From NCBI GenBank assembly GCA_964016885.1, contig OZ024740.1:357740001-357804000 (forward strand): a stretch of 64,000 nucleotides of DNA. The letters run 5' to 3'. The stretch comes from Eledone cirrhosa. Taxonomy: Eukaryota. The translations under genes and the position numbers were made by a program. The notes beneath the pieces were generated by a model that ran no database searches, was not told the DNA's origin, and worked only from the letters and a program-made list of their open reading frames with translations. Below, in pieces: positions 696 through 20,238 of the stretch. How positions within the stretch are numbered: position 1 is the stretch's first letter; each line of letters starts with the position of its first letter.

Positions 696-841
696 TCTTA
701 GATGCATCAACTTGAACCAGATTATGTTTACTCTTTTGGTACCAATTTGATGCAGATATTTTTTCATAAATGTTGCATACACAAGGTTAATTACTTCTTA
801 ACACCCTGTAGTGAATTAGAAGAAAATATTTTAAAATGTGT

Positions 842-1027
842 TAGTTTATTCAAATGTTTATCGTACTTTACCTGTGGACATTTCATTGCAAAATTGAGCA
901 GAAAGACTTTAATTTTTAATGTGCTACAGTCATAGTTTATTCAAATGTTTATAGTATCTTTACCTGGGGACATTTCATTGCAAAATTTAGCAGAAAGACT
1001 TTAATTTTTAATGTGCTACAGTTATAG
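842..1027. repeat. ~91-bp direct tandem duplication
   Basis: TAGTTTATTCAAATGTTTAT...TTAATGTGCTACAGT(C/T)ATAG occurs twice head-to-tail with a few substitutions. Confidence 0.9.
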
Positions 1028-1247
1028 TGCTGTCTTGCATTTTTCAAGAATGTCATGCAAATATGGTTTCATGTATTATAGGATGTTAAGAGATCACATC
1101 TGTTGGTCTCATTAGAGTTATTTGTCTTGCTTGCTGTTTTCAAGCACCCTTTAATCAGTTTTAATCTAGGAATTGTTTGAATTATCCCACTTGATTGAAA
1201 ATGTTCAGCTTACTATATTATGTATGGAAGACATTACAGCCCTTATA

Positions 1248-1370
1248 GCCTTTTATGTTCTGAGTTCAAATCCTGCCGAGGTTAGCTTTGCCTTTTATCC
1301 TTACGGGGTCGATTTAATCGACTTTCCCCTCCCCAGGCCTTGTGCCTAAAGTAGAAACAATTATTATTAT
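1248..1370 (+). mobile_element. tRNA-derived SINE family 1 (partial)
   Basis: B-box GAGTTCAAATCC, central GCCTTT.ATCCTTACGGGGTCGAT, and tail GGCCTTGTGCCTAAAGTAGAAAC(ATT)n, as in the other copies. Confidence 0.8.
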
Positions 1371-1371
1371 T

Positions 1372-1735
1372 TTACATCTGCTTTTCCATACTTACATGGG
1401 TTAGACTGGCCTTTTCCAGCACAGCATCCAACCCCTCATTACATTCTTTAATCATCTCCTTTGCGAGTTTCAGCAATTTCAGATCAGCTCTTACCACCTC
1501 TACTCAGATCTTGCTTAATCTTTCACAACTGCAGCTACCTTCCAGTGGGATTTCTTGACACTTCTTCACCCAATGATTATCATCCATATGCATCAGATGT
1601 CCATACCAACACAGTCTTCTCTCGTGTACACTATATCTGATTCCTCTTATATCCATTTCTTTTAGCAGCTCATCTATACTTCATCATTCATGCACATTAA
1701 CATTGCACATCCATAAAAGCATGCTTGCTTCTTTG
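1372..1735 (-). mobile_element. Old RTE LINE 3' fragment
   Basis: Minus strand resembles the LRWYGHVMRM...W region and terminal hairpin of the intact RTE copies. Confidence 0.7.
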
Positions 1736-1811
1736 TATTTAATATAGAGAATACGCCCTTAAGGTTTTTGTCCTCATCACTACCTCACCTCTCTCATCAT
1801 CATCACCTCTC

Positions 1812-3350
1812 TCATCATCATCATCATCATTTTACGTCCGCTTTTCTCTGCTTGCAAGGGTGGGACAGGTCCTATTCAGAACAGCATATCTCCACTTGTC
1901 ACGGTCCTTCGTCATCTTCACCGTGAGCTTCAGCGATCTGAGGTCTGCTCTAACCACCTTCGCCCATGTTTTTCGTGGTCTACCTCTACCATGTCTTCCT
2001 TCAACTGCATTTCCTGGCACTTCTTCACCTATCGGTCATCCTCCATGCGCATCACATGTCCATACCATCGCAGTCTCCTCTCTCGCTCACGACACAGTTT
2101 CTCTCTCAACACATCTATGCTCGGTCGGTCACGCACATTGACATTGCACATCCAACGGAGCATGCTTGCTTCATTTCTCTCCAGCCGTCGCATATCCTCT
2201 GCAGTTGCTGCCCATGTCTCACTACCATGCAGCATCGCGCTCCTCACACAGGGATTATATAACTGGCCTTTCGTACGCAGGGAGAAACCCTTCTTTGTCA
2301 GCAGAGGAAGCAGCTCCCTAAACTTCTTCCAAGCCGTCCTTATTCTAGATACTATGGCCTCGGAACACCCGCCTCCCATGCTAATCTGATCTCCTAGGTA
2401 CCGGAAGTTATCAACCACTTCTATAGCACCCACCTGCATTTGAAAAATGTGTCTATCAATGCAACTTCTACTGTCAAATGTCCCTGTACATCTACTCCAT
2501 ACGTATTTCTCCCTACCTGTTAGTTTGCCTGCTATCCCACTACATCTCTTGTGTACGCAAGATCTGCATTGTGTGCATTTTATAGAATTTATGCCAACTG
2601 GGATTTCTGTGCATTTCTTTAAACAGCTATCATTTTTCCATATACATCACGTATCTATACCATTGCAGTCTTCTCTTTTGCACACATCCAGTTATTCTTA
2701 TGCCAAGTTTTTTCTGTCAGCTTGCTTATGCTACATTGTCCATACACATTAGCATTACATATCTATTGGAGCATGCTCGCTTCATTTCTTTCTAGCCTTC
2801 ACATGTCTTTTGCAATCAACATTGTAGTTTGCATGCAGGCATCATACATCCAACCCTTCATTCGGAGGGAGATACCAGTTCCTGAAACTTGTTCCAGCTT
2901 GTTCTTACTCTGGCTATCACTCTTTCAGAGTAATCTCCCCAACTGTTGATTTGGTCATCTAGGGAAGAAAAGAAGTCAACGACTTCTAAGGAGCCTCCCT
3001 GGCAACTGAGAGTATCTACTTCACATGTGTTCTTAGTACTTACTTCTCTTGTGTATCTGCCACAAACAAAGTCTATCTTGTCTGTTAGGCTTTAGAATGT
3101 GCACCTTATTGAATTTCTGCCCACCCTTTTCTGACATATCAAAGATCACTTCCCTGATGGTATCAGTCTCCTGACTCTTTACTACTTAAGACTTTGTTAA
3201 GTTTACTTTGAGGCCATTCAACTCTAGGTTATTCTTCTATGCCTTGGAATTTTGCCTTTAAGTCTCGTGGATTCAACTATGAGGACTAGGTCACCAGCAC
3301 ACATTAGTTCCCAATGAATGCCAGTTTAAAACTTTTTAGTGATGACTAGC
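1812..3350 (-). mobile_element. RTE LINE subfamily B 3' fragment (to ~2610) followed by more decayed RTE pieces
   Basis: ORF 2029..2439 FRYLGD...WKKFRELLPLL...MLHGSETW...RLRWYGHVMRM; ORF 1832..2020 GRPRKTW; (GAT)n tail at 1813-1830. Confidence 0.85.
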
Positions 3351-3505
3351 CCTAGTATATGTGTGTGTGTGTGTGTATATGATAAGAAGAACAAATATAT
3401 GTATGTGTGAGATGTCAACATGAATGGACCTGTTATTTTTATCTAAAGACATTTTTTCCAATTCCAACCCGCCCGTCCCCTCAATCTATCTTATCTCTCA
3501 TTCTT

Positions 3506-3541
3506 TCTTCTGATGAAGGACTAGCGTCCGAAACGTTAAGA
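3506..3541 (+). ncRNA. Minimal type I hammerhead ribozyme motif
   Basis: TCTT-CTGATGA-A-GGAC(TAGC)GTCC-GAAA-CG-TT-AAGA: canonical core, 4-bp stem II, stem I TCTT/AAGA, palindromic minimal stem III (AACGTT). Confidence 0.8.
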
Positions 3542-3643
3542 CCCTCTTCCTGCTATATCAAGCGTTAACCTAATATATCCCTTCTATATACTGTACTGAT
3601 TGTGTTGTTATTTCGGTTATATATATATACATGTGTATATGTG

Positions 3644-3848
3644 TGTGTGTGTAAATAAATATATATATATATATATATATACATACATCATGAATGACCT
3701 TGGGATTTGCACCTAGAAAGTTCAGGGCACAGCTTTGTGGAAGACCATCAGTTGCATAACCAGTCTCTCCTCTACATGCCAATGATGATGTACAAGGGAA
3801 AGGAAATGGCCGATACACCTTGGCACCAGTAACATATCATCATCATCG
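3644..3848. repeat. ~200-bp direct repeat, copy 1 (copy 2 at 6011-6215)
   Basis: Appears identical to 6011-6215, including TA-tract length (offset 2367). Confidence 0.9.
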
Positions 3849-4745
3849 TTTAATGTCCATCTTCCACGCTTGCATGGGTTTGGATGGGAGTTTTCCCACT
3901 TGAGGCAAGAGTGGTTGTCTTGCTCGCATAGGACTGTCTGGCGGGTTTTCTACGGCTGGATGCCCTTCCTAACACCAACCACGTTTACAGTGTGGACTGG
4001 GAGGTTTTTACCGTGTTACCTACACGGCCACATTGCAGCGTGGACTGTGTGTTTTTTTGTCGTGACACTTACACATCTGGCGGGTTTTCTATGGCTGGGT
4101 ACCCTTCCCAACATCAACCACGTTTATAGTGTAGACTGGGAGGTTTTTACCGTGTTACCTACATGGCCACATTTCAGCGTGGACTGTGTTTTTTTTTGTC
4201 GTGGCACCTACACGACCTCATTTGTTTTGGACTGGATGTTGTGGTACCAACATAACTTTACATTGAAAGGGGTGGTGTGGATGGGTGGGGGTAGTGGGAC
4301 AGGGGTGTATTTTTGTTAGAGGTGCCTACTGACTGTAGGTTTCACTTTGTACTTAGGTAAGCCGGGTCTTCTGTATTACTGTGTAGCGCCAAAGATCTCG
4401 GTCCAGTGACATTGTCTTGGAGAGGTGTAAGTGTGTGAGGTTGGAATTTATCAAGTCGTCCCAGGTTTTTTCTGGGCCTGCCTACTCCGTGGCTACTGTC
4501 TATTTTTATTGCCCTGCACTTTTTTATACAGCTGTCGTCTTTCATGCGCATCACGTGACCGTACCAACATAGCCTTCTCTCGAGTAAACAACATCTGATC
4601 CCTCTTATTCCTAATTTTTCCCTTAGTTCGTTTATGCTTTGCCGTTCACGTATATTACTATTACACATCCAGCGGAGCATGCAAGCTTCATTCTTCTCCA
4701 GTCTGCGTATATCCTCTGCACACATTGCCCAGGTCTCATTGTGTG
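3836..4745 (-). mobile_element. RTE LINE subfamily A, 5'-truncated
   Basis: ORF 4342..4725 (LEKNEACMLRWMC...WYGHVMRM...GRPRK), full 3'UTR and (GAT)n tail. Confidence 0.9.
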
Positions 4746-4842
4746 CAGAGGATACAGATGTATGTATCTAATATATATATATATATGTGTGTGTATGTAT
4801 GTATATGTGTATATATATATATATGTGTGTGTATGTATGTAT

Positions 4843-6010
4843 ATCATCATCATCATCTTTGTTTAACCTCCATCTTCCACGCTAGCATGGCTTAGACGGG
4901 AGTTGTCCCACTTGAGGCAAGGTTGGTCGGGTGACTGTCTCGCTCATATTGGACTGTCTGGCAGGTATTCTACGGCTGGATGCCCTTCCTAACACCAACT
5001 ACATTTACAGTGTAGACTGGGAACTTTTTACTGTGTTACCTACACGGCCACATTACAGTGTGGACTGTGTGTTTTTTTGTCGTGACACCTACACGATCTT
5101 GATCTCAATGTCATTATCTCATTTATTTGGACTGAATGTTGTGGTACCAACTTTACAGAGAGAGGGTGGTGTTGGTGGGAGTGGGAGGATAGAGTAAGGG
5201 TAGTGGATTGGTGTGTATATTTGGTTAAGAGGTGCCTACTGACTGTAGGTTTCGCTTTGTACATAGCAAGGCAGGTATTCTGTATTACTGCGTAGCGCCA
5301 AAGATCTCGGTCCAGTGACATTGTCTTAGAGAGGTGCAAGTGTGTAAGGTCGGAATTTATCAAATTGTCCCAGGTTTTACTAGGTCTACCTACTCCGTAA
5401 CTTCCATCAATTTTCATCGCCCTGCACTTTTTTATACACCTGTCGTCTTTCATGCGCATCACGTGACCATACCAACGTAGTCTTCTCTCAAGTAAACAGC
5501 ATCTGATCCCACTTATTCCTAATTTCTCACTTAGTTCATTTATGCTTTGCCGTTCACGTATATTACTATTACACATACAACGGAGCATGCATGCTTCGTT
5601 CCTTTCCAGTCTGCGCAGGTTCTCTGCACGCAATGCCCATGTCCCAATGCCATATAGCATTGCTGTTCGTATACACGCATCATACAATCTGCCTTTGATT
5701 TTTAGAGAGAAACCTTTTGTGGCCAACAGCGGTATGAGCTCTCTGAGCTTTTTCCATCTTGATTTGACTCTGGCTACTGTGCTTTCAGAGCACCCTCCAC
5801 CACTGCTGATTTTGTCACCCAGGTAATGGAAAGTGTCCACTATTTCTATAGAACCATCTGGGCAATAGAAGGAGCTAGTATCCTGTGGGCACTTGCTACT
5901 TATTGCACCTGAGCATCGGCCACATATAAAATCTACGTTCTTAGATAGTTTATCTGTGATCCCACTACATCTTTTATGGACAGGGCCTTGATGAACACCA
6001 ACTTTTACAC
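4843..6010 (-). mobile_element. RTE LINE subfamily A-like, 5'-truncated with internal deletion
   Basis: ORF 5040..6185 jumps from KVGVHQG directly to VHKRCSG (RT core missing), then FHYLGD...RLRWYGHV; 3'UTR and (GAT)n tail. Confidence 0.9.
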
Positions 6011-6215
6011 TGTGTGTGTAAATAAATATATATATATATATATATATACATACATCATGAATGACCTTGGGATTTGCACCTAGAAAGTTCAGGGCACAGC
6101 TTTGTGGAAGACCATCAGTTGCATAACCAGTCTCTCCTCTACATGCCAATGATGATGTACAAGGGAAAGGAAATGGCCGATACACCTTGGCACCAGTAAC
6201 ATATCATCATCATCG
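6011..6215. repeat. ~200-bp direct repeat, copy 2
   Basis: Matches 3644-3848. Confidence 0.9.
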
Positions 6216-6656
6216 TCTAACGTCCATCTTCCACGCTTGCATGGGTTTGGACGGGAGTTTTCCCACTTGAGGCAAGATTGGTTGTCTTGCTTGTGTAGGA
6301 CTGTCTGGCGGGTTTTCTACGGCTGGATGCCCTTCCTAACACCAACCACGTTTACAGTGTGGACTGGGAAGTTTTTACCGTGTTACCTACATGGCCACAT
6401 TACACCGTGGACTGTGTGTTTTTTTTTTTTCGTGACACCTACACGACCTTATTTATTTCGGACTGGATGTTGTGGTACCAACATAACTTTACATCAAAAG
6501 GGGTGCTGTGGATGGGGTGGGAGTGGTGGGACAGGGGAGTATTTTTGTTAGAGGTGCCTACTGACTGTAGGTTTCGCTGTGTACTTAGGCAAGGCAGGTC
6601 TTCTGTATTATTGTGTAGCGCCAAAGATCTCGGTACAGTGACATTGTCTTGGAGAG
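6203..6656 (-). mobile_element. RTE LINE subfamily A 3'UTR fragment
   Basis: Near-identical to 3836-4420 and to the reverse complement of 13040-13450. Confidence 0.9.
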
Positions 6657-6684
6657 ATATAAATATATATATATATATATATAT

Positions 6685-7239
6685 GTAAATATCTTTAAGT
6701 CGTTTTGAAGCCTCGACAATGCGAATGGGTAAATCTCCGGGTAACAAGATCCGGTGGTGGAGAGAGAGATGTAAGTGGGTGTACGTTGAGATGCGTGGTG
6801 TGTATGAGATGTGTAGAAGAATGAAGGAAAGAGTATAAAGGATAAAATAAAATAACAACACGAGAGAGAGTTACCTTGGGAGAGATTTAATAGTCCCTAT
6901 ATATTTCGGATTCACATCCATCAACTTGGGATTTTTCCGGGGTGGGGGAAAGGTTGTCTGTCGGACAAGTGCGAAACGCGTCCTCCGCTGTTTGTTGTTT
7001 TGAATATCTGAGGTATTCGGAAGAGCGCGCGTGCGCGTGAAATGGGGTCGGTCGGGCAGAGGTCAGCGGCCGAATGAGGGAGTGGGGTAGCGCTAGCTGT
7101 CAGTCCATTCTCTGCCTGTTTGTTAAATGTTACTGTCTGTGTGTGTGCGTGTGTTGTTGCCTTGTTCCTCTGTATTGGCAGTGTAGTATGTTCGTATGGT
7201 GGAATGCTACTGTGTGCGTGTGTGTGTGTGTAGTTGTCT

Positions 7240-7276
<37 letters not shown>

Positions 7277-7360
7277 GTTGCTGCATCGTTTGTTAGCTTA
7301 AACCAGCCATCTCATTTTGCTTCTCTCTGATCGGTTGTTTATTTGCGGTTGCAGGCGTTT
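6685..7360 (-). repeat. PLE 3' pseudo-LTR
   Basis: Direct repeat of 9935-10627 with scattered substitutions and (GT)n-region indels. Confidence 0.9.
6894..6931 (-). ncRNA. Hammerhead-like motif with atypical core (3' pLTR)
   Basis: Sense strand UCCC-AAGUUGA-U-GGAU(GUGA)AUCC-GAAA-UAUA-UA-GGGA. Confidence 0.45.
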
Positions 7361-9921
7361 TATAAAAAGCGCTTCCTTGATGCGTAATGTGCCGACGTTT
7401 CTTTCAGTCGCTAGAATTGTGACAATGGGCCTTCCGTCTTTGTTTCCGCATTTGTCTATGTGTTTCCGGAAAGACGAGGCCCTGGTTTTAGTGTGTTCCT
7501 TGATCCGGATGTGCAAAGGTCGGATTGTGCTACCTATGTAGTATTGGTTGCACCTGTCACATTCTATCTTATACACGACGTATGTGCGTAGGCAACAGTT
7601 CGCATGGCGTATCGGGCAGTCTCTGAGGGAGCATGTGTCAGTAGATTTCCCGGGTTTCCTGGAGAGGCATCTTCGCAGGGAGGGGCCCGAGTGGGCCAGG
7701 TGGATGTCGAGGCCCTCCCTCCGTATAGCCTTGCGGATAGCGTTGGTGGTATTCTCGCCCAGGTGTGGCATTTTAAGGAAGCACTTGCCTTGGGTGCCTC
7801 TCTGTCTCTGGCGTCTGGTGTCTCCTATTCTGTCTGTGATCGAGGTAGGGTACCCGTTCGTCTCCAGCACCTCGAGGAATCGCTTGGTATGAGTGACACC
7901 ACTCGCGGGATCGCTGCATCTGTTTTTGATTCGCGCGATCTCGTTCGTGATGTATCCCCTTTTGGCACTGTTAGGGAGGGCGGACTTGTAGTGGACGAAC
8001 AGGTCCCTGCAGGCTGCCTTTCGGTAGAAATTGCAGTGGATCCTTCTCTGTTCCGTGATGTTGATTCGGTAGTCGAGGAGGGGAAGTGACCCGTCTTCGT
8101 TGGGGTGTTCAACACTGAAGTCAATGTTCTCGTCCGTGTTGTTGAACGTCTCATAGATTCTGTTCGCCGTGTCTTGGGAAGATGTGAGGATGAGGATATC
8201 GTCCACGTACCTTGAGAAAAAGGCTACGGCGTTGGGGTGGCAGGCGTTGAGTGCCTTGCGTTCAAGGTTGTCCATGTTAGAGATCGCTAACACACCTGAT
8301 GGGCTTGATCCCATGGGCAATCCCGAGGTTTGTTGGTATGTTTGGTCAAGGAATCGGAAGTAGGTGTTGTCGACGACGATGGATAGGAGTTGGTGGATGT
8401 CAGTGGTGGTGAGCCCGAAGCAGTGTAGGTCGGTGGATTGAACGCGTTCCATCAGTATATTGACAGCCGGGAGTGCCGGGACCGAGGTGTAGAGAGCGAC
8501 TACATCAAGGCTGAAGGCATATCTGTTATTCCTTCTGGGGTCGGGATCCATTTGATGCAGGCGCTTCAACACCTCCTCGGAGCTGTTAACGTGTCCCGGC
8601 AAGGTGTCTAAGATGGGTTTGAGTATTCTGGCTAGGAGCCATGAAATTTTGTAGAGTGGTCGCTCCACGCTCGATACGATGGGCCTGATCTTCAGGTCGG
8701 GTCCCTGTTTGTGTGTTTTCACGAGGTGGTAGAAGGCAGGTAGTCTGCTGTTCCTCGTGAGGAGGTTGTATCTCAGCTTCTTCGAGAGCTTCCGCCGGTC
8801 GCAGATGTTGGTCCAGGCGGCGTTGATGTGCTCTTCTATCTGCGCGGGAGTGATTCCCGTGACCCTGGAGTAGAGGTTGTCATCGTCAAGGTGTTGGAGG
8901 GCCAGGGTGTTGTAGGCCTCTCTGCTGATGACGCAGAATTCTTTTCCCTTGTCGGAGGGGAGATAAATGAGGTTCTTCGATTTTAGGTTGGAGAGAGTGG
9001 TGAGTTGAGATTTGGTGAGGTTATGTGTTGTGCGTGTGTGTGTGTGTTTGTGAAGTATATCCGAGATTGAGTGTTTTAGTCTGATGAGTTTAGTGTCGAG
9101 TTCGTGGTTGGTGGTGGGGGGTGGAGTGGGTTGTCGGGGTCGTAAGTGGGGAACTTGGGGTGGGTTGCGTGGGCGCTGTTATTTTCTGTGGCGCTGTTGA
9201 TGGCGGTCACCCATTTAAGTTGGTAAGCGGCTCGACAAAAGTTGGCCTCGATGTTGAGTTTGAGTCTGTCGTCGAGATGTTGTGAGACGATGAACTTGGG
9301 TCCGAGGTGTAGGAGTTTCAGCTCGTCGCTCGTGAAGGTGCCGGTTAGGTCGGTGACCAGGTGAGTCGCATCGTTGAGGTATGGCTCGGTGTTGGTGGAT
9401 GCGGCAGTGGCGGTTGTTAAATTGTTGTTTTCCACGTGGTTTTGGTCCGTCTGTTTGTTAGTGTCGATGATCCTGTTGTGGCGTTTCGACAAGATCCACT
9501 CATATTTTCGCTTGAGCCGTTTTTTCTGGTATTGAACTCTGGAGTGGTAGCACTGGTCGATTGCTTTAGTGATTTTCAGGAGCAAGTCCCCGGGTGCTAT
9601 TGGCAGTCGATGTGTCCGCTCTGAGAGTGTCCGCTTATGGACGTGTAATTGGCGGTTGAGATGTCTCAGGATCTGTTTAACACACGTGCGATGTATGCGG
9701 TTAGTGGTGTTTTGGAAAGCTGGTGTACGTAGGCTTACTGGTAAGCGGATGTTCCTGATGGTGTTGGGGATGACATCGTTTTTTAAGCAGCGTTTAAGGA
9801 AAATAATTTGACAGCCAGCGTTGGCCCATTTCTCCGACAGTCTAAAAAGTTCCCTTACGGATGCAAACAATTCCTGGCTCAAGTGTAAGGATAAGAGAGT
9901 ATTGAAGTTTGCTTGAAGCAT
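7298..9921 (-). CDS. PLE polyprotein (N-terminal domain, RT, Cys linker, GIY-YIG endonuclease); ~870 aa with one frameshift at the G-run near 9112-9122
   Basis: FLKRC..VIP N-terminus; LPSDKG; FYHLVKTHK..RPIVS; SLDVVALYT; GLPMGS; RYVDD; LDY; VVYKIEC..C..YYIGST.R.L..R..EH; EAL.I....P..N. Manual translation of the RT frame is open from ~9115 to 7298; first ATG at 9921. Confidence 0.9.
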
Positions 9922-9934
9922 TGTGGAATAATAA

Positions 9935-10627
9935 GTAAATATCTTTAAGTCGTTTGGAAGCCTTGACAATGCGAATGGGTAAATCTCCGGGTAACAAGAT
10001 CCGGTGGTGGAGAGAGAGATGTAAGTGGGTGTACGTTGAGATCCGTGGTGTGTATGAGATGTGTAGAAGAATGAAGGAAAGAGTATAAAGGATGAAATAA
10101 AATAACAACACGAGAGAGAGTTACCTTGGGAGAGATTTAATAGTCCCTATATATTTCGGATTCACATCCATCAACTGGGGGTTTTTCCGGGGTGGGGGAA
10201 AGGTTGTCTGTTGGACAAGTGCGAAACGCGTCCTCCGCTGTTTGTTGTTTTGAATATCTGAGGTATTCTCAGAGCGCACGTGCGCGTGAAATGGGGTCGG
10301 TCGGGCAGAGGTCAGCGGCCGAATGAGGGAGTAGGGTGGCGCTAGCTGTCAGTCCATTCTCTGCCTGTTTGTTAAATGTTACTGTGTGTGTGTGCGTGTG
10401 TTGTTGTCTCGCTTGAGTGTGTGTGTGTGTGCGTGTGTTGTTGCCTTGTTCCTCTGTATTGGCAGTGTAGTATGTTCGTATGGTGGAATGCTACTGTGTG
10501 TGTGTGCGTGTGTGTGTGTAGTTGTCTCGTTTGTGTGTGTGCGTGTGTTGCATCGTTTGTTAGCTTAAACCAGCCATCTCATTTCGCTTCTCTCTGATTG
10601 GTTGTTTATTTGCGGTTGCAGGCGTTT
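9935..10627 (-). repeat. PLE 5' pseudo-LTR
   Basis: Direct repeat of 6685-7360. Confidence 0.9.
10144..10181 (-). ncRNA. Hammerhead-like motif with atypical core (5' pLTR)
   Basis: Sense strand CCC-CAGUUGA-U-GGAU(GUGA)AUCC-GAAA-UAUA-UA-GGG; stems I-III in hammerhead order. Confidence 0.5.
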
Positions 10628-10640
10628 CATATATATATAT

Positions 10641-10664
10641 ATCTATAAGAGAAAGTATGACCTC

Positions 10665-10698
<34 letters not shown>

Positions 10699-10744
10699 GA
10701 AACGGCTTGAGCTCTGCCGTCGAGGTCATACTTTCTCCTATAGA

Positions 10745-10745
<1 letters not shown>
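10641..10745. repeat. Small foldback (inverted repeat) in (TA)n
   Basis: ATCTATAAGAGAAAGTATGACCTCGAC ... GTCGAGGTCATACTTTCTCCTATAGAT. Confidence 0.85.
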
Positions 10746-10775
<30 letters not shown>

Positions 10776-10780
10776 TATAT

Positions 10781-13451
10781 AGTAGAGAAGACTATCAAGT
10801 GGCCAGGAGGGAAGCTAGGAGACAAGTCTACTTCGTAAGAAGGGAAGCTGAGGAAAGAAAGTTCAAGCATGTTCTACAACGCGAGGACCAAAAACGTGAG
10901 GTGTTCAGGATTGCTAGGCAATGTGTCAGGGAAAACCATGATATTGTCGGGGAGAAGTGTGTCCTTCATGATGATGGTGTACTTGCCATCACTGACGCTG
11001 ATAAGAAGGTAACTTGGAAGTGTCACTACGAAAGGCTACTAAATGAGGAGAATAATTGGGAGAAAGACAGTCTCCCCCTCATCGATCCAATAGAGGGACC
11101 AGCAGTGTAAGTTGAAGGTAGTATAATAAGTAAGGCGATCAAAGACATGCAGACGGGCAAAGCGGCTGGGCCTTCGGAAATAGTTGCTGAAATGCTGAAA
11201 GCATCTGGAATGGTGGGACACACTATGGTCACCCAGATAGTAAACCAAGTCATACAGAATGGGGTCGTGCTGAAGGACTGGCGTAGCAGCACCATCATTA
11301 ACTGCTACAAGGGTAAAGGAGATGCCCTAGATAGGGGAAACTATAGAGGCATTAAATTAATTGACAAGGTCATGAAGGTCACAGAAAAAGTAATAGCGCA
11401 ACTAATCAGAGAGCGAATTGATCTAGATGAAATGCAGTTCGGGTTTGTGTCAGGCAAAAGTACGACAGACGTTCTTTTCCTTGTACGACAACTACAGGAG
11501 AAGTACCTAGCTAAAAGTAAACCCCTATACTTAGCTTTTGTTGACTTGAAGAAAGCATTTGACAGAGTTCCCCGCTCCCTATCTGGTGGGCTCTTACAAA
11601 ACTAGGTGTTGATGAATGGCTTGTGAGAGCTATACAAGCCATGTATACAGAAACAGTAGCAAGGTTAGAATTAACAACGAATATAGTGAAGAGTTTAGCG
11701 TAAAAGTTGGTGTCCATCAGGGCTCCGTCCTTAGCCCCGTACTATTTATTATTGCCCTTCAGGCTATAACAGAGGAGTTCAAGACCGGCTGCCCATGGGA
11801 ACTCTTATACGCAGATGATCTAACACTCATAGCTGAATCAATGGTCAAACTAGAGAAGAAATTCCAAACATGGAAGCATGACCTAGAATCAAAAGGCCTT
11901 AAAATTAACCTGTCTAAGACTAAAGTTCTAGTTTGTAGGAAGGAAAATAGGGCGCCGGTCCCATCCGGGAAATGGCCATGCTCAGTGTGTAGGAAAGGAG
12001 TAGGCAGAAACTCCATTTTATGTCCCACGGGATGGAAGAATTTCAGCCTGCCTTAGTAGTATTACCTGGTTAAGTTCAGCCTGCCTTCTAGTATTACCTG
12101 GTTAACAATACGTGTGGTTATAGTGTGACCTACAGACCCAGATGCCTTCAGCATCTCTGCAGCTACACCCGATGGACCGGTTGCTTTCCCCATCTCCATA
12201 TCTTTGATTGCCTTATTTACTGTGCTGCTGCTGACTTGTACTGCTGGCCCCCCTATAGGGTCTACTTGGGGTAGGGTCTCTTCTTCCCATGCATTCTCCT
12301 CATTTAGTAATCTATCATAATGGCTCTTCCATGCATCTTTCTTCTCAGCACTTGTCAGAGCAAGCTCACCTTTATCATTCTGTATGCAAAGTATGGGTGC
12401 ATAAAAGATGTAGTGGGATCACAGGTAATCTAACTAAGAATATAGATTTTATATGTGGCGGGTGCTCAGGTGCAATAAGTAGCAGCAAGTGCCCACAGAA
12501 TACTAGCTCATTCCATTGCACAGATGGTTCTATAGAAATAGTGGACACCTCCCGTTATCTGGGTGACAAAATCAGCAGTGGTGGAGGGTGCTCTGAAAGT
12601 ACAGTAGCTAGAGTCAGAACAGGATGGAAGAAGTTCAGAGAGCTTATACCACTATTGGCCGCTAAAGGGTTCTCTCTAAAAATGAAAGGCAGGCTGTATG
12701 ATGCCTGCATACGAACAGCAATGTTACATGGCAGTGAGACTTGGGCATTGTGTGCAGAGGATATACGCAGACTGGAGAGGAACGAAGCTTGCATGCTCCA
12801 TTGGATGTGTAATAGTAATATACGTGAACGGCAAAGCATAAATGAACTAAGGGAGAAATTAGGAATAAGAGCAATCAGATGTTGTTTACTCGAGAGAAGA
12901 CTACGTTGGTATGGTCATGTGATGCGCATGAAAGACGACAGCTGTATAAAAAAGTGCAGGGCGATAAAAATAGACGGTACGCAGACCCAGAAAAACCTGG
13001 GATGACTTGATAAATTCCGACCTCACACACTTACACTCTCCAAGACAATGTCACTGGACCGAGATCTTTGGCGCTACACAGTAATACAGAAGACCCGCCT
13101 TGCCTAAGTACAAAGCGAAACCTACAGTCAGTAGGCACCTCTAACAAGAGTAAATCCCCGCCCCACGACTCCCACAACATCCAGTCCGAAATAAATGAGG
13201 TCGTGTAGGTGTCACGAAAAAAAAAAACACACACTGTAATGTGGCCGTGTAGGAAACACGGTAAAAACCTCCCAGTCCACACTGTAAACGTGGTTGGTGT
13301 TAGGAAGGGCATCCAGCCATAGAAAACCTGCCTGACAGTCCTATATGAGCAAGACAACCAATCTTGCCTCAAGTGGGAAAACTCCCGTCCAAACCCATGC
13401 AAGCGTGGAAGATGGACGTTAAACGATGATGATGATGATGATGATGATGAT
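10781..13451 (+). mobile_element. RTE LINE subfamily A, 5'-truncated, disrupted; carries an inverted insert at ~12028-12380
   Basis: ORFs 10694, 11147, 11616, 12289: GKAAGPS, NYRGIKL, QFGF, FVDLKKAFDRV, GVHQGSVLSP, LLYADDL, PHD-like Cys cluster, RLRWYGHV; (GAT)n tail. Confidence 0.95.
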
Positions 13452-13468
13452 AATATGTGTGTGTGTGT

Positions 13469-16400
13469 ATCATCATCATCATCATCATCACTGTTTTTTC
13501 GTCCGTTCTTTCATGCTAGCATGAGTTAGACGGGTTGTCCTGTTGTGGGCAGTGTCTGGTCGGCTGACCATGCCTTGCTCATACAGGAACTGATTTTGGC
13601 TTGATTTCTACAGCTGGATGCCCTTCCTAACACCAACCTCGTTTACAGTGAGTGCTGGGTGCTTTTTCGTGGTGCCTACACATCCACTTTACAGTGTGGG
13701 CTGGGTGCTTTTTTGCCGTGGCACCTCCACGACCAACTTGCAGTGGGAGGGTGTGGGAGCATATTGTCTATATGCTTCAGCTTGTACCCATGGGAGGTCG
13801 GGTACTCTGTATTACTGTGTGACGCCAGAGGTCACGGTCGTGTGTCATCGCCTTTGAGAGGTGTAATTGGGTAAGGTCGGCTTTTATCACCTCATCCCAG
13901 GTCTTCTTGGGTCTCCCCACTCCGCACTTTCCATTGACTTCTAGTGCTCTACACCTTTTTATGCAGCTGTCATCCTTCATACGCATCACATGTCCATACC
14001 AGCGCAACCGCCTCTCCTGCACACAGCATTTGATTCCTCTTATGCTCAGTCTCTCTCTCAACTCATTTATGCTTTGTCGTTCACGTATATTACTATTACA
14101 CATCCATCGGAGCATGCAGGCTTCGTTTCTTTCTAATCTACGTAAGTCTTCCACCTTCAGCGCCCCGGTCTCACAACCATGTATCTTTGCTGTTCGGATA
14201 CACGCATTATACAGTCTGCCTTTCATTTTGAGGGAGAAGCCTTTTGCAGCTAGCAGTGGCAGTAGTTCCCTGAACTTCTTCCATCCCGTTCTTACCCTAG
14301 TTATTGTACTTTCTAAACACCCACCTCCGCTGCTAATTCGGTCACCTAGGTAGCAGAAGCTGTCTACTGTTTCTACAGAGCCCTCCCAGAGATTGGTGGT
14401 ACTTGTTTCCTGTGGCTGTTTGCTGCTTGCTTTCCCAGCACAGCTGCTGTATGTGAAGCCTACATTCTTAATTAAGCTTCCTGAGATCCCGTTACATCTC
14501 TTGTGTACCCATTGTTTGCATTTGGGGCAGAGAATGGAGTTCTTACCTACACCTTTCCTACATACTGAGCAAGGCCATTTCCCTGAGGGGATCTGGGTTC
14601 TGTTTTCTCGTCTACTTACAAGGACCTTAGTCTTTGTCATGTTGACTTTGAGACCCTTTCTTTCTAGTCCCTGCTTCCAAGTTTGGAATTTCTTTAGTTC
14701 TACCATAGATTCAGCTATAAGTGCGAGGTCATCAGCATACAGGAGTTCCCATGAGCATCCGGTCTTAAACTCCTCCGTTATTGCCTGCAGGACTATGATG
14801 AACAGGAGAGGGCTAAGAACAGAGCCCTGGTGGACACCAACCTGTACGCTAAATTCCTCGCTATACTCATTGCTAATCCTAACTTTGCTGACTGCTCCCC
14901 TATACATGGCTTGTACAGCTTTCACAAGCCATTCATCTACTCCTAGTTTTCTAAGAGCCCACCAGATTATAGCACGTGGAACTCTGTCAAAGGCTTTCTC
15001 GAGATCGACGAATACCAGGTAGAGTGACTTACTTTTAGCTAGGTACTTTTCCTGTAACTGCCTCAAAAGGAAGAGGGCATCAGTGGTGCCTCTTCTTGGT
15101 ACAAACCCAAATTGCATCACATCTAGTTTCACCCGGTCCCTAATCAAATGTGCTATAACTCTTTCTGTTACTTTCATGACCTGGTCCATCAGCTTTATAC
15201 CTCTATAGTTTCCTCTATCGAGTGCATCACCTTTACCTTTGTAGCAGTTGACAATGATGCTACTGCACCAATCTTTTGGTATGACACCTTCTAGTATTAC
15301 CTGGTTAACAATACGTGTGGTTATAGTGTGACCTACAGACCCAGTTGCCTTCAGCATCTCGGCAGCTACACCCGATGGACCGGTTGCCTTCCCCATCTTC
15401 ATATCTTTGATCGCCTTACTACGCTGTTGCTGACTTGTACTGCTGGCCCCCCTATAGGGTCTACTTGGGGTAGGGTCTCTTCTTCCCATGCATTCTCCTC
15501 ATTTAGTAATCTATCATAATGGTTCTTCCATGCATCTTTCTTCTCAGCACTTGTCAGAGCAAGCTCACCTTTATCATTCCATATACACTTCTCTCCAATG
15601 ACATCACAATTCTCTCTGACACACTGCCTCGCAATCTTGAACACCTCCTGTTTCTGGTCCTCACGTTGCAAAACATGCATGAATTTTCTATCCTCTGCTT
15701 CCCTCCTAGCTAAGTATACTTGACGCCTAGCTTCCCAATTGGTCTCTATGTCCTGCACCCCCGTTCTTTCATTCTTTCCATGCCTGTCTCTTGGCCTTAA
15801 CTGCCTCATCTACCTTATTGTTCCACCACCAAGTCACTCTCCTCCTGCTTGTGGTCTTACTCCATCCACAGATCTCATCCGTCGCCTCTAGTAAGTTATT
15901 TTTTAGGAACTCCCAGTGCTCTTCTACATTGAATGTCTGTATCTGTTCTTCTTTACTGTCATAGGCGTTGAGTAAAATATCTTTAAATCTGTTACTGGCT
16001 GAGGGGTCTTTCAGCTTCCAGATCTTTCTTCTCTAGGTTGGCCTCTGTTTCCAGGTTCGTCTAGTTCTGACCGTGAGGTCGCTGACAACTAAGCATTAGG
16101 GAAGGCTTTTGTGTTTACGACCGTCCATCTGTCACGTCCTCTGATGAGGATAAAATCTATCTGACTAGAATGCTCCCCTGATCTATAGGTGATCAGGTGG
16201 TTGTCGGGTTTTTTGAAGTTTGCGTTACATATCGACATGTCATTGGCGTCGCAGAATTCTAGAAGTCGGAATCCTTCCTCATTTCTTGTGCCAACCCCGT
16301 GGCCTCCACGGACTCTATTGAAGCCGTCACAGTGTTTACCTACGTGTCTGTTAAAATCTCCTGCGATGATTAGGAAGTCATTGTTGTTTGTTAGAGCAGT

Positions 16401-17240
16401 AGTGTGCATTAGGGACTCGTAAAATCTATCCTTATGTTTGTCTGGCAACCCCGATTGGGGTGCGTAAGCTGATATTATTGTGGTAATTGTTTTATTCAGG
16501 ACTAGTCTGAGTTTAATGATTCTTGCATTTACCCTGTGCACTGAGATTACTTTATCTACCCACTTGTCAGCTAGTAGTATACCTACACCACCCATCCCAT
16601 CGTCATTTCCCACCCAGAAAAATTTGTAGCACTGACTTTTTCCTACAAGGACTCTAGCAGACTCTCCTCTCCATCTAGTCTCTTGCACACAGCATACATC
16701 AATTTCTTTTCGCTCTAGCATTTCTACGATTTCTCCTGCTCTTCCTTTCATTGTGCTTACATTGATGGTACCAACTCGGAGTTTTAGGCATTTGTCGACA
16801 CTCGTAGGGAAGGGTCGATTTTTGCAGGGGTGTGTGTGTGCTTCCTCTCTCTGGATTGGAGCTTCACATGGGTGCTTGGTAGCTCGCGGATTCATATTCA
16901 TTTCATCTATTAATTCAGAGTTGCTCCAATTTATTCTCAGCTCATCCGTACATAACATAGGAAAATTCAGGGCTAGTAGAACAGTGGTGGTGGTAATAAT
17001 GGCAGGGTGTGTTGGACGGGGGAGGAGAGAGTTAGGTAGTAGTAGTAGGAGAAATGGCATGCTGAGGTTTGATTGGTCGAATAGGCTATGGTGGTGTGAG
17101 GGAAATTGTGAGGTAGGCAGCCAGTCATGGCTATCAAATAACCGATAGAGGTGAAATTGTGAGGTAGGCAGCCAGTCTTGGCTATCAAATAACTGATAGA
17201 AGTGAATACACCGTGGCAAGATAACCGATAGAAATGAATA
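13469..17240 (-). mobile_element. RTE LINE subfamily C, near full length (APE endonuclease + RT + PHD), with frameshifts and stops
   Basis: ORF 16089..17219 (GTINV, CVQETRW, SAYAPQ, AGDFN, SQIDFIL = APE); ORF 13777..15489 (570 aa, RT with YADD); (GAT)n tail at 13469-13490; 5' end approximate. Confidence 0.95.
17101..17205. repeat. ~51-bp tandem repeat (2 copies plus partial) in the RTE 5' region
   Basis: GAAATTGTGAGGTAGGCAGCCAGTC(A/T)TGGCTATCAAATAAC(C/T)GATAGA twice. Confidence 0.85.
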
Positions 17241-17256
17241 CAGCTACAATAATAAT

Positions 17257-17433
17257 TGTTTCTACTTTAGGCACAAGGCCAGCAATTACCCAGTACATTA
17301 CTGGTACTTTATTTTATCGACCCCGTAAGGATGAAAGGCAAAGTTAACCTCGGCGGGATTTGAACTCAGATCGTAAAGGGACGTAACTATGCTAGAAAGC
17401 ATGGCGTCCAACCCTCTACCGACACTGCCAATT
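17257..17433 (-). mobile_element. tRNA-derived SINE family 1, full length with 16-bp TSD
   Basis: A-box TGGCAGTGTCGG, B-box GAGTTCAAATCC, Meta/MESC-like GCCTTTCATCCTTACGGGGTCGATAAAATAAAGTACCAG; TSD CAGCTACAATAATAAT at 17241-17256 and 17434-17449. Confidence 0.9.
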
Positions 17434-17777
17434 CAGCTACAATAATAATAATAGCCAGTCATAGCCTGTAGCCTTTGATGGAAAAATAGACAGATAAAGA
17501 GGCAGCATGGTAGAGAAAATGGAAATAGCGATACCTGGCAAGATTTGTATGGATGGATGGCTGGAACGTAGCTAAAACAGCTCTTAGTGATTCATTTTAG
17601 CCTTTCAGAGTAGTGTGTGTCTTATCTCTTCAATAACTTCAAGATGTGTGAGGAGGATTGGGTGAAGAGGGAAAGGGAGGTAATAGGTGGCTTAGAGAGA
17701 GATGGACCTGTATATGTGTATGGATGTATATATGTATATATATGTATATGTATGTATGTATATATACATATATATAT

Positions 17778-18648
17778 ATCATCATCATCATCATCATCAC
17801 TGTTTTACGTCCGTTCTTCCATGCTAGCATGGGTTAGACGGGTTGTCCTGTTGCGGGCAGTGTCTGGTTGGCTGACCATGCCTTGCTCATACGGGAACTG
17901 ATTTGGCTTGATTTCTACAGCTGGATGCCCTTCCTAACACCAACCTCATTTACAGTGAGTGCTGGGTGCTTTTTCGTGGCGCGTATACGTCCACTTTACA
18001 GTGTGGGCTGGGTGCTTTTTTGCAGTGGGAGGGTGTGGGGGCATATTGTCTATATGCTTCAGCTTGTACCCATGGGAGGTCGGGTACTCTGTATTACTGC
18101 GTGATGCCAGAGGTCACGGTCGTGTGTCATCGCCTTTGAGAGGTGCAACTGGGTAAGGTTGGCCCCTATCACCTCATCCCAGGTCTTCTTGTGTCTCCCC
18201 ACTCTGCGGCTTCCATTGACTTCTAGTGCTCTGCACCTTTTTATGCAGCTGTCATCCTTCATACGCATCACATGTCCATACCAATGCATCCGCCTCTCCT
18301 GCACACAGCATTTGATTCCTCTTATGCTCAGTCTCTCTCTCAATTCATTTATGCTTTGTCGTTCGCGTATATTACTATTACACATCCATCGGAGCATGCA
18401 GGCTTCGTTTCTTTCTAATCTACGTAAGTCTTCCACCTTCAGCGCCCAGGTCTCACTACCATGTAACATTGCTGTTTGGATACATGCATCATACAGTCTG
18501 CCTTTCATTTTGAGGGAGAAGCCTTTTACAGCTAACAGTGGCAGTAGCTCCCTGAACTTCTTCCATCCCGTTCTTACCCTACTTATTGTACTTTCTGAAC
18601 ACCCACCTCCACTGCTAATTCGGTCACCTAGGTAACAGAAGCTGTCTA
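17778..18648 (-). mobile_element. RTE LINE subfamily C, 5'-truncated
   Basis: ORF 18059..18850 C-terminal part is near-identical to 13777-14370; 3'UTR and (GAT)n tail. Confidence 0.92.
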
Positions 18649-18695
18649 CGTATATATGTATGTATGTATATATGTATATGTATGTATGTATATAT

Positions 18696-19302
18696 GTCAG
18701 GTCACCAGTTGGTGCTACTGGTAACATGTATCCCAGTACAACCTGTCCCATGGTCACGTCGTTGGCGACTAAACTGGCAACCCCACCAAGGTTTCTTGGT
18801 GAGGAGGGTGACTTTGGACGTCCTGCAGGACTAAAAACAAAACCTGTCAAAGGGCAAAGGAGCTCTTAACAGTCAATGGCCATCCAAAATCACCGGGAGA
18901 GATGACCTCTTAGCCTTTGTCAAGGCAGAATTCTAGGAGAAGGAAAACTCTATAACACCTGCAACTCTGATGGTATCCAATGATGTTGACTTGTTCTTCT
19001 TTTTGGTAAATATCATCTTGGTTAAGAGAGTGGGACTGGCTTTGTGCAGTGCCTTTGCTCACTATAAAAGCTTCACGGCACAGGCATTGCTTTATATCTG
19101 GAGATCTCTCTGCACTTGTCGTCACATGGTACCATGGGCCCAGCACTATGTGTCAATAATTGCCACAAGTGTAGTGTTTGTACCAGAGCTTTCAAGTCAC
19201 TGGCTGGACTAAAAAGTCACACTTGTTCAGCGCATCGGTAGGGGTTCTCCTACATGGATATTAAGTAGTGGCCGTACTCGAAAACGAGTTGGCAGCCACC
19301 AT
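18696..19302 (+). mobile_element. Unclassified GC-richer insert in (TATG)n, probably a LINE 5' leader
   Basis: Bounded by microsatellite on both sides; structured 5' end; GGAGAAGGAAAACTCT motif recalled from RTE 5'UTRs; no credible ORF. Confidence 0.4.
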
Positions 19303-19429
19303 GTATATATGTTTGTATGTATGTATGTATGTATATATATATGTATGTATGTATATATATGTATGTATGTATGTATATATGCATATATATATGCATGTAT
19401 GTATATATGTTATCTCTTTCTCTTAATTT

Positions 19430-20238
19430 CGAGTATATGTTTTTGACCGGCCACCTTCCTGGTGGCAAGGTTGTAAAAGAAAAGAAATTGTCATCCCTTG
19501 AATTGCAAGAATGTTTTGCAAATTTTGAAGGTGCCAGCTATCGCAGCCATTTGTAGACTATGAATTAGAGAGCTGCGCTTTTTGTCCGCAAATCCAGGTT
19601 CAGTCATACTTTGGTCCAAGCGGGTTGGTATATAACCCGTAGGTCCAATAATGATGGGTATGAAGCTAAAGGTGTATCTTGGATACTGGATTTGTAAACT
19701 CCTCATCAATGGTCCGTAGATGTCCTTCTCCTGTATTTTTCTGACAACGTTTACATCAAGTGGGCAGCTGATCTCCACAACAGAACACGTTTTCAATGTG
19801 TGGTCTCAAACAACAATATCAGGCCGGTTATGCTTTAATTTGGTGGCAGTTTTTATTTTCAGGTTCCACCAGTATTCCTTAGTGCCATCTGTCTCAATAT
19901 ATTCTTCCTCGTTTGTTGTTAATTTTGTTTTCCGAAGTGCGTTCCAGATGGTTCTAGCTATCCCATCGTGTCTCATGGGGAGGTAGTAGCGAGATGACAT
20001 TCTTTCGCAGGTGGCAACAATGTGGCTTACAACCTCAATCTTTGTTTTACATAGCCTACATTTATTGTCAGCTGCTGGCCCTCCCCTTTTGTGCAGCAGA
20101 TATTTAGTAGGGAGTTCTTGTTCCTCTCAAGGTGTGATGTCATAAACTTGTCGGAACTCCATGCCAGGCTTTTTGAGTGGTTTATCCCCTCTATGGTCTG
20201 TGTTTTACGTCTCAAGTATCCATGCACAACTTTTTCTG
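19430..20238 (-). mobile_element. Decayed non-LTR element 3' end with CCHC knuckle and restriction-like endonuclease (R4/Dong-like)
   Basis: KCRLCK...SHIVATC; RHD; WWNLKIKT...HNRPDIVV; VEISCPLD...EK..YGPL; IPIIIG; embedded in (TATG)n. Confidence 0.8.

Follow-up and report, generated by a model that had tools for sequence, protein, structure and literature searches.

In a Penelope-like element (PLE) of Eledone cirrhosa, both pLTRs carry a minimal hammerhead-like motif whose family-wide core is CAGUUGA, and comparison of genomic copies shows that this core changed stepwise, CCGACGA > CCGUCGA > CUGUUGA > CAGUUGA. The element lies in a window of 64,000 nucleotides (contig OZ024740.1, 357,740,001 to 357,804,000), to which all positions below refer. 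The lineage was amplified to thousands of copies while two 'invariant' core letters changed and the rest stayed frozen. Nearly all PLEs have hammerheads, although these are slow, depend on protein and can be dispensed with in vitro, which leaves their retention to be explained. Four natural cores on one scaffold, together with two canonical sister motifs, make a series by which the importance of cutting can be told from that of the fold. We give an even chance to the reading that CAGUUGA is the family-fixed core of a hammerhead that is attenuated, works as a dimer with help from protein and likely still cuts slowly.

The motif and its host element

The minus strand reads CCC CAGTTGA T GGAT GTGA ATCC GAAA TATA T A GGG at 10180-10145, and an identical motif except for the core, AAGTTGA, at 6930-6895. 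The order of parts that the initial annotation had described for both pLTRs was thus borne out. Its observation that U4 and A6 are replaced in both copies could be read directly and proved to be the family-wide state. The replacement of C3 that it reported for one copy is real (AAGUUGA, 3′ pLTR) but private, C3A being found in 1/99 copies of the youngest stage defined below. Typical features of the PLE min-HHR are present. Stem I is short, stem II opens with G10.1-C11.1 after one extra base, and the required G12 A13 A14 A15.1, U16.1 and H17 occur as GAAA..U A in 6/6 stage majorities. The canonical core C3 U4 G5 A6 N7 G8 A9 is replaced by one with U4A and A6U, in which C3, G5, G8 and A9 are kept. 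An Rfam scan of the motif gave no hammerhead model match at E<=10, and the motif folded alone was no stabler than shuffles (z -1.0 and -1.1 for the two copies). Because neither test lends support, hammerhead homology rests on position and comparison. By these, the motif is a homologue of the pLTR hammerheads, and since it lacks their canonical core we class it as a variant and not as an ordinary member. The putative splice donor sits 23 nt past the predicted cut, and an AG/GU donor-like site is found at the same place in 6/6 stages and in both sister families described below.

Features of the element in the window.
Feature	Position	Strand	Basis
5′ pLTR, starting with the last ORF codons (partial tandem), joined to (TA)n	9931..10628	-	sequence
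3′ pLTR, stopping right in front of where the ORF starts, joined to (TA)n	6685..7378	-	sequence
N-terminal part of the PLE ORF (ATG at 9921; GPKF motif)	9076..9921	-	translation; N-terminus resembles protein P0071
RT, then GIY-YIG endonuclease at the C-terminus (with DKG motif, Cys linker and a CxxC that separates GIY from YIG)	7298..9178	-	domain search and reading
Minimal type I hammerhead-like motif, core CAGUUGA (U4A, A6U), 5′ pLTR	10145..10180	-	sequence and family state
Predicted cut A17/G1.1, 5′ pLTR motif	between 10148 and 10147	-	predicted
Second motif copy, 3′ pLTR, with extra private C3A (AAGUUGA)	6895..6930	-	sequence and family comparison
Predicted cut, 3′ pLTR motif	between 6898 and 6897	-	predicted
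Putative 5′ splice donor AAG/GUAAC (GT at 10124; copy at 6874)	10119..10127	-	inferred from sequence

Both motif copies lie inside direct repeats (6681-6980 versus 9931-10230) that are 97% alike, and the two pLTRs share 631/648 aligned bases. A frameshift in the window copy splits the N-terminal part of the ORF from the remainder. The ORF matched RVT_1 (E 4e-9) and GIY-YIG (E 3e-4; 21.5 bits, slightly below the cut-off of 22.6). RT followed by a C-terminal GIY-YIG, the DKG and GPKF motifs, partial-tandem pLTRs, inverted truncated copies and (TA)n targets are all present, as in EN+ PLEs. The Cys linker between RT and EN is also present, a Cys-rich linker being a described trait of the Neptune/Nematis PLE clades. 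The named protein relatives are from Octopus bimaculoides, at 53-54% identity.

The element is embedded among many LINE fragments (789-6660 and 10780-20000), which we take to be RTE-like; they lie on either strand and have tails of (CAT)n and (TA)n. Directly outside the 5′ pLTR, at 10629-10780, a short inverted repeat with AGAAAGTATGACCTCGAC arms lies between (TA)n tracts. A different repeat family in the window carries a canonical minimal hammerhead on the plus strand at 3507-3541 (CUU CUGAUGA A GGAC UAGC GUCC GAAA CG U U AAG); its relatives have stem II GGAU/AUCC, a compensatory change. On its minus strand, a further genomic locus (L232:1490-1540) has a hammerhead-like repeat that contains GAAAUAUAGGAC and whose core resembles CUGAUGG.

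Family state, history and constraint

The string from stem II through GAAA and the palindrome to GGG was matched exactly 2,575 times across the genome of 3 Gb, against 0 for a reversed control. The core CAGUUGAU was carried by 2,214 of these 2,575 copies sharing stem II-GAAA-stem III, the exact match being preceded by CAGTTGAT. Thirty loci sampled irrespective of core gave 27 CAGTTGAT, 2 CAGTTAAT and 1 CCAATGAT. A further 957 exact matches have the shorter AUAU palindrome, with the core mostly unchanged. The canonical core followed by GGAT-N4-ATCC was matched 51 times in the genome, 0 times with a GTGA or GCGA loop, and the 20 of these matches that were fetched belong to other repeat families. 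CUGAUGA was found in only 1/91 copies that have a letter other than A at position 4. The initial annotation had proposed to examine whether the variant core is conserved among family copies: CAGUUGA is the family state, and local decay from a canonical consensus, the case held to refute the proposal, is excluded by the same counts. Copies with a non-U at position 6 number 30 and are scattered. Contigs at least 85% alike, from one sample (possibly the genome's own), contain no variant with a share of at least 10% over 10143-10180. Counted by hand, the 91 copies in which position 4 is not A fall out by loop: with the GUGAA loop U 18, C 4 and G 1, and with 4-nt loops G 30, U 22 and C 6. These loop-linked counts point to a genuine older U4 subfamily.

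A loose pattern for other families with a CAGUNGA core gave 605 matches versus 995 for its control; two classes recurring among the first 100 listed (CAGTCGAC.. and CAGTAGAC..), judged on 16 such or single loci and four more of the same family, were without stem I, palindrome or PLE context and were rejected. A pattern with position 11.2 changed gave 41 matches versus 26 in the control, mostly scattered mutants. In metagenomes, a protein search found no related locus, and three motif matches, without a PLE ORF or the 3′ strand of stem I, were set aside as chance.

Searching with the endonuclease domains of related proteins uncovered two sister families, S1 and S2. The EN of S1 is 57-61% identical to that of the window, and its motif, in the orthologous place, is CCU CUGAAGA A GAGAU-loop-AUCUC GAAA AUUA AGG, then GGAC and a donor-like AAG/GU, as in the window element. 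S2 is 55% identical across the C-terminal region that was matched, and its motif is CC CUGAUGA A GGGAC-loop-GUCCC GAAA UAUU GG. Pairs 2.1:1.1 and 10.2-10.4 differ on both sides in the sister families, that is, in a compensatory manner, and a palindromic stem III/loop 3 is kept across the families (AUAU or AUAUAU in the window family, AAUU in S1, AUAU in S2). Because the sister motifs are canonical and their stems compensatory, the window motif is a true hammerhead homologue in which A6 was ancestral. The covariation that the initial annotation had called for was therefore found against the sister families; within the lineage the stems are frozen and compensatory changes are absent. Among S1 motif reads, in which the same locus may count more than once, 72/105 are CCGAAGA (U4C) and 28/105 CUGAAGA. 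In most sampled S1 motifs, U4 was thus replaced independently, and in a PLE that looks to have been active of late. S1 itself looks very young, with dozens of equal-scoring EN matches and open frames of ~900 aa.

Older subfamilies were collected by searching DNA with old copies as queries, in two cases with downstream sequence only. From 323 profile matches, 229 non-redundant motif-spanning copies were retained, 210 of them with enough flank. FastTree on the flanks only of these 210 copies gave a ladder, as read from the topology; with two outliers dropped, 208 copies were assigned to six stages (17, 14, 17, 42, 19, 99). The stage majorities of the core, corrected for CpG decay, are CCGACGA, CCGUCGA, CUGUUGA and then CAGUUGA three times; stage 1 is mixed, with some CUGA copies, and its position 4 is the least certain. 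Loop II reads GUGAA in the first three stages, then GCGAA, GCGA and GUGA, and the palindrome is AUAU through stage 5 and AUAUAU in the last stage. The order of the stages is supported by protein identity to the window, which climbs broadly along the ladder: in the best long matches 57-66% for stage 1, 64-66% for stage 3 and mostly 72-80% for stages 4-5, no long protein match having been found for stage 2.

Constraint was measured over 24 structural or catalytic positions (stems I and II, C3, G5, G8, A9, G12-A15.1, U16.1 and A17). These had 0 changes in 120 position-steps over five steps, versus 165/945 in the flanks (Fisher p 6e-10), a contrast in which stages 5 and 6 and 12/17 stage-3 copies were collected by patterns containing motif letters, stages 4-6 were told apart by the length of the loop, and flank change is somewhat inflated where majority lines come from decayed copies. 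Downstream-only searches and the one-sample contigs agree with the freeze. Flank change was 81/287 upstream, 17/200 in the next 40 nt and 67/458 further downstream, and the motif was more frozen even than the conserved downstream 40 nt (p 4e-4). After A6U, the 24 positions had 0/96 changes, versus 134/759 in the flanks (p 4e-8) and 14/160 in the local downstream block (p 0.001). After both core changes they had 0/48, versus 69/397 in the flanks (p 4e-4); against the downstream 40 nt (5/80) the difference was not significant (p 0.16). Positions 4, 6 and 7 changed 4 times in 15 position-steps, as the flanks do. Because of the 0/120 against 165/945, the fold appears to be under selection with positions 4, 6 and 7 drifting; a sequence-level constraint would look identical, as the stems show no compensatory changes inside the lineage.

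Folding, 5′ junctions and rival explanations

In predicted folding, any U4 core placed on the window scaffold adopts a slipped register that hides the cut site, with p 0.95-0.99 in the monomer. The slipped helix is formed by C3:G1.1 and U4:A17, with CCC-C3 facing A17-GGG. In the computed dimer of U4 cores the slipped register has -16.6 versus -13.2 kcal/mol. C4 or A4 is predicted to remove the 4:17 pair, and for the CAGUUGA dimer the slipped register is still slightly favoured (-14.8 versus -13.2). Such replacements would keep the junction open on the CCC/GGG scaffold, at some chemical cost; the U4 stage, predicted to be the worst folded, was then replaced by A4. The computed dimer has about -10.7 kcal/mol with the AUAU palindrome and -13.2 with the AUAUAU into which it grew. 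In the later stages loop II was also turned into a GNRA tetraloop, and both changes would favour the dimer. In a 260-nt context, the pairing probability of stems I and II is low (0.00 and 0.02-0.06). The slippage model explains neither the U4C of S1, which cannot slip in this way, nor A6U. The CUGAUGA revertant suggested earlier as a positive control is itself predicted to misfold on the window scaffold and would be a poor control alone. Rescue by splicing, with a CCCCAG acceptor rebuilding CUGA, was rejected: exon 2 would still open with UUGA, and the AG is absent in stages 1-3.

If RNA is cut between A17 and G1.1, some genomic copies should start at G1.1. Exactly there, 8 true 5′ junctions were identified among 13 matches, fold-backs centred on the site included. 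At G1.2 there were 0 independent junctions among 7 matches, and in stem II 1-3 per position, 20 over nine positions (25 classified of 37 matches). At C1.5, four bases downstream, 7 junctions were found among 30 fetched of 48 matches. The pile-up at G1.1 is only suggestive of cutting; that at C1.5 shows that G1.1 is not unique. Fold-back insertions whose arms meet at the predicted cut were observed in the window family and in S1 (L537/L538, L561, L458, L451), and those of S1, perfect at N1.1, occur also in the U4C-linked type; such arms are expected if two cDNAs reached the same RNA 5′ end. Two other counts were discarded. The AT-flank count of 5′ junctions (16 versus 3; S1 18) is confounded by TA microhomology, and the S1 junctions at A1.1 (22/30 fetched of 52, one hairpin counted twice) are without a positional control, and the A may be target-derived.

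An attenuated hammerhead would cut slowly, as a dimer held together by its AUAUAU palindrome, and would probably need the element's own protein to do so. Cutting at A17/G1.1 would leave a minority of the RNA with a defined 5′ end, 23 nt ahead of a putative 5′-UTR intron, while most RNA would stay uncut and act as template. A cut upstream of the ORF might possibly serve translation, by analogy with viral 5′-UTR hammerheads, which are reported to give cap-independent translation only with a catalytically intact core (PMC13725137). We count for cutting the family-wide fixation, the orthologous canonical motifs and the ladder with its freeze; natural precedents for the moved positions 4, 6 and 7 and the independent U4C of S1; the growth of the palindrome, the GNRA loop and the relief of U4 slippage by C4/A4; and the protein-dependence of the lizard hammerhead PAc, together with the junctions at G1.1. 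Counted against it are the low activity of CUGA-turn mutants, the C1.5 junctions, the comparison with the downstream block after both core changes, the lack of compensation within the lineage, the favoured slipped dimer, the low stem pairing in the 260-nt context, the dispensability of cleavage in the lizard PLE in vitro and the motif-bearing collection patterns.

The main rival holds that catalysis was lost around A6U and that the junction or dimer fold was kept as a protein binding, packaging or translation signal; we consider this quite possible, though short of even. When a hammerhead with the core CUGAUGA was screened by saturation mutagenesis, low activity was described for every single or double mutant in the CUGA turn except the 3:8 swap (PMC9901934), and CAGUUGA, for which the result is known at class level, is exactly such a double mutant. 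In a lizard PLE, cleavage was unneeded for insertion in vitro and 0 RNA-seq reads ended at the site (PMC11167929). Naiads thrive without canonical hammerheads (PMC8557442), and the catalytic residues also build the fold, so that freezing fits a non-cutting fold as well. Against its having lost catalysis, only naturally tolerated positions moved, G8, G12, G5 and A17 being unchanged over the four steps after A6U; some 5′ junctions fall exactly at G1.1; and the viral translation effect required a catalytically competent core. We judge it improbable that the letters were kept because they act at sequence level (as an internal promoter, as a start site at G1.1 or in splicing of the neighbouring intron) with the hammerhead shape as a leftover. 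The downstream 40 nt are also conserved, PLE pLTRs do house a promoter and a 5′-UTR intron, and G1.1, as a defined 5′ end, could mark a start site; however, the sister families differ in letters and share pairing and palindrome, and the motif is more frozen than the adjoining block over all steps. That the motif is a neutral, dead relic carried by a successful lineage is more improbable still. The loss of two canonical invariants speaks for it, as does the folding of isolated copies, which does not surpass that of shuffles, but this reading is already largely refuted by the lack of changes at the 24 positions, by the retention of the motif in sets from downstream-only queries and by the invariance of the one-sample contigs.

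A stronger proposal, that a natural hammerhead without the CUGA uridine-turn sequence still cuts, with protein or dimer replacing the contribution of U4 and A6, is less likely than not. If it is true, the preserved dated intermediates, including the short-lived U4 state that is predicted to misfold, would let the handover of part of the core from RNA to protein be replayed in steps. If CAGUUGA cuts, the hammerhead consensus of all descriptor searches is too narrow, and PLEs reported to be without hammerheads need re-checking. If it does not, the family documents how a ribozyme was turned into an element without catalysis.

Comparison with known hammerheads

The closest known systems are the min-HHRs of metazoan PLEs, described as slow dimers (Cervera and de la Pena 2014, PMC4209133). 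Shared with these are the position in both pLTRs, the short stem I, the extra base 9/10.1, G10.1-C11.1, GAAA, a palindromic, dimer-forming stem III and the UH site. The core differs: the window motif has CAGUUGA, whereas the one core variant given in the compared part of that study's text is U3-A8, and one of its two supplement files contains CUGAUGA 15 times and CAGUUGA, CUGUUGA and CCGAUGA not at all. The small PLE variants of Lunse, Weinberg and Breaker (cited in PMC6765202) are likewise dimer-cleaving PLE hammerheads with a reduced stem III. Literature searches, in which the set of Lunse et al. was covered through its citation only, turned up no description of a CAGUUGA core or of a comparable stepwise series.

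The hammerhead PAc of the Anolis Poseidon element is reported to cut only with PLE protein (Frangieh et al. 2024, PMC11167929) and is thus a model for protein rescue. The likeness extends to a pLTR hammerhead near the ORF start, an EN+ PLE and AT-rich insertion. In PAc cleavage has been shown, at a site 26 nt into the ORF, whereas the predicted site of the window motif lies ~225 nt upstream of the ATG; unlike PAc, this motif lies ahead of a putative intron and has U4 and A6 replaced.

The altered positions have precedents elsewhere. A U4C hammerhead supports viroid infectivity, an A6C hammerhead in phage Bcep176 cuts at <0.1 per min, and position N7 is free in hammerheads (Perreault et al. 2011, PMC3088659). 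In these cases the same two positions, 4 and 6, are altered naturally and activity is low but real. The viroid and phage variants are sporadic single changes to C, whereas the window family has two changes, to A and to U, that are fixed across thousands of copies and for which dated intermediates exist.
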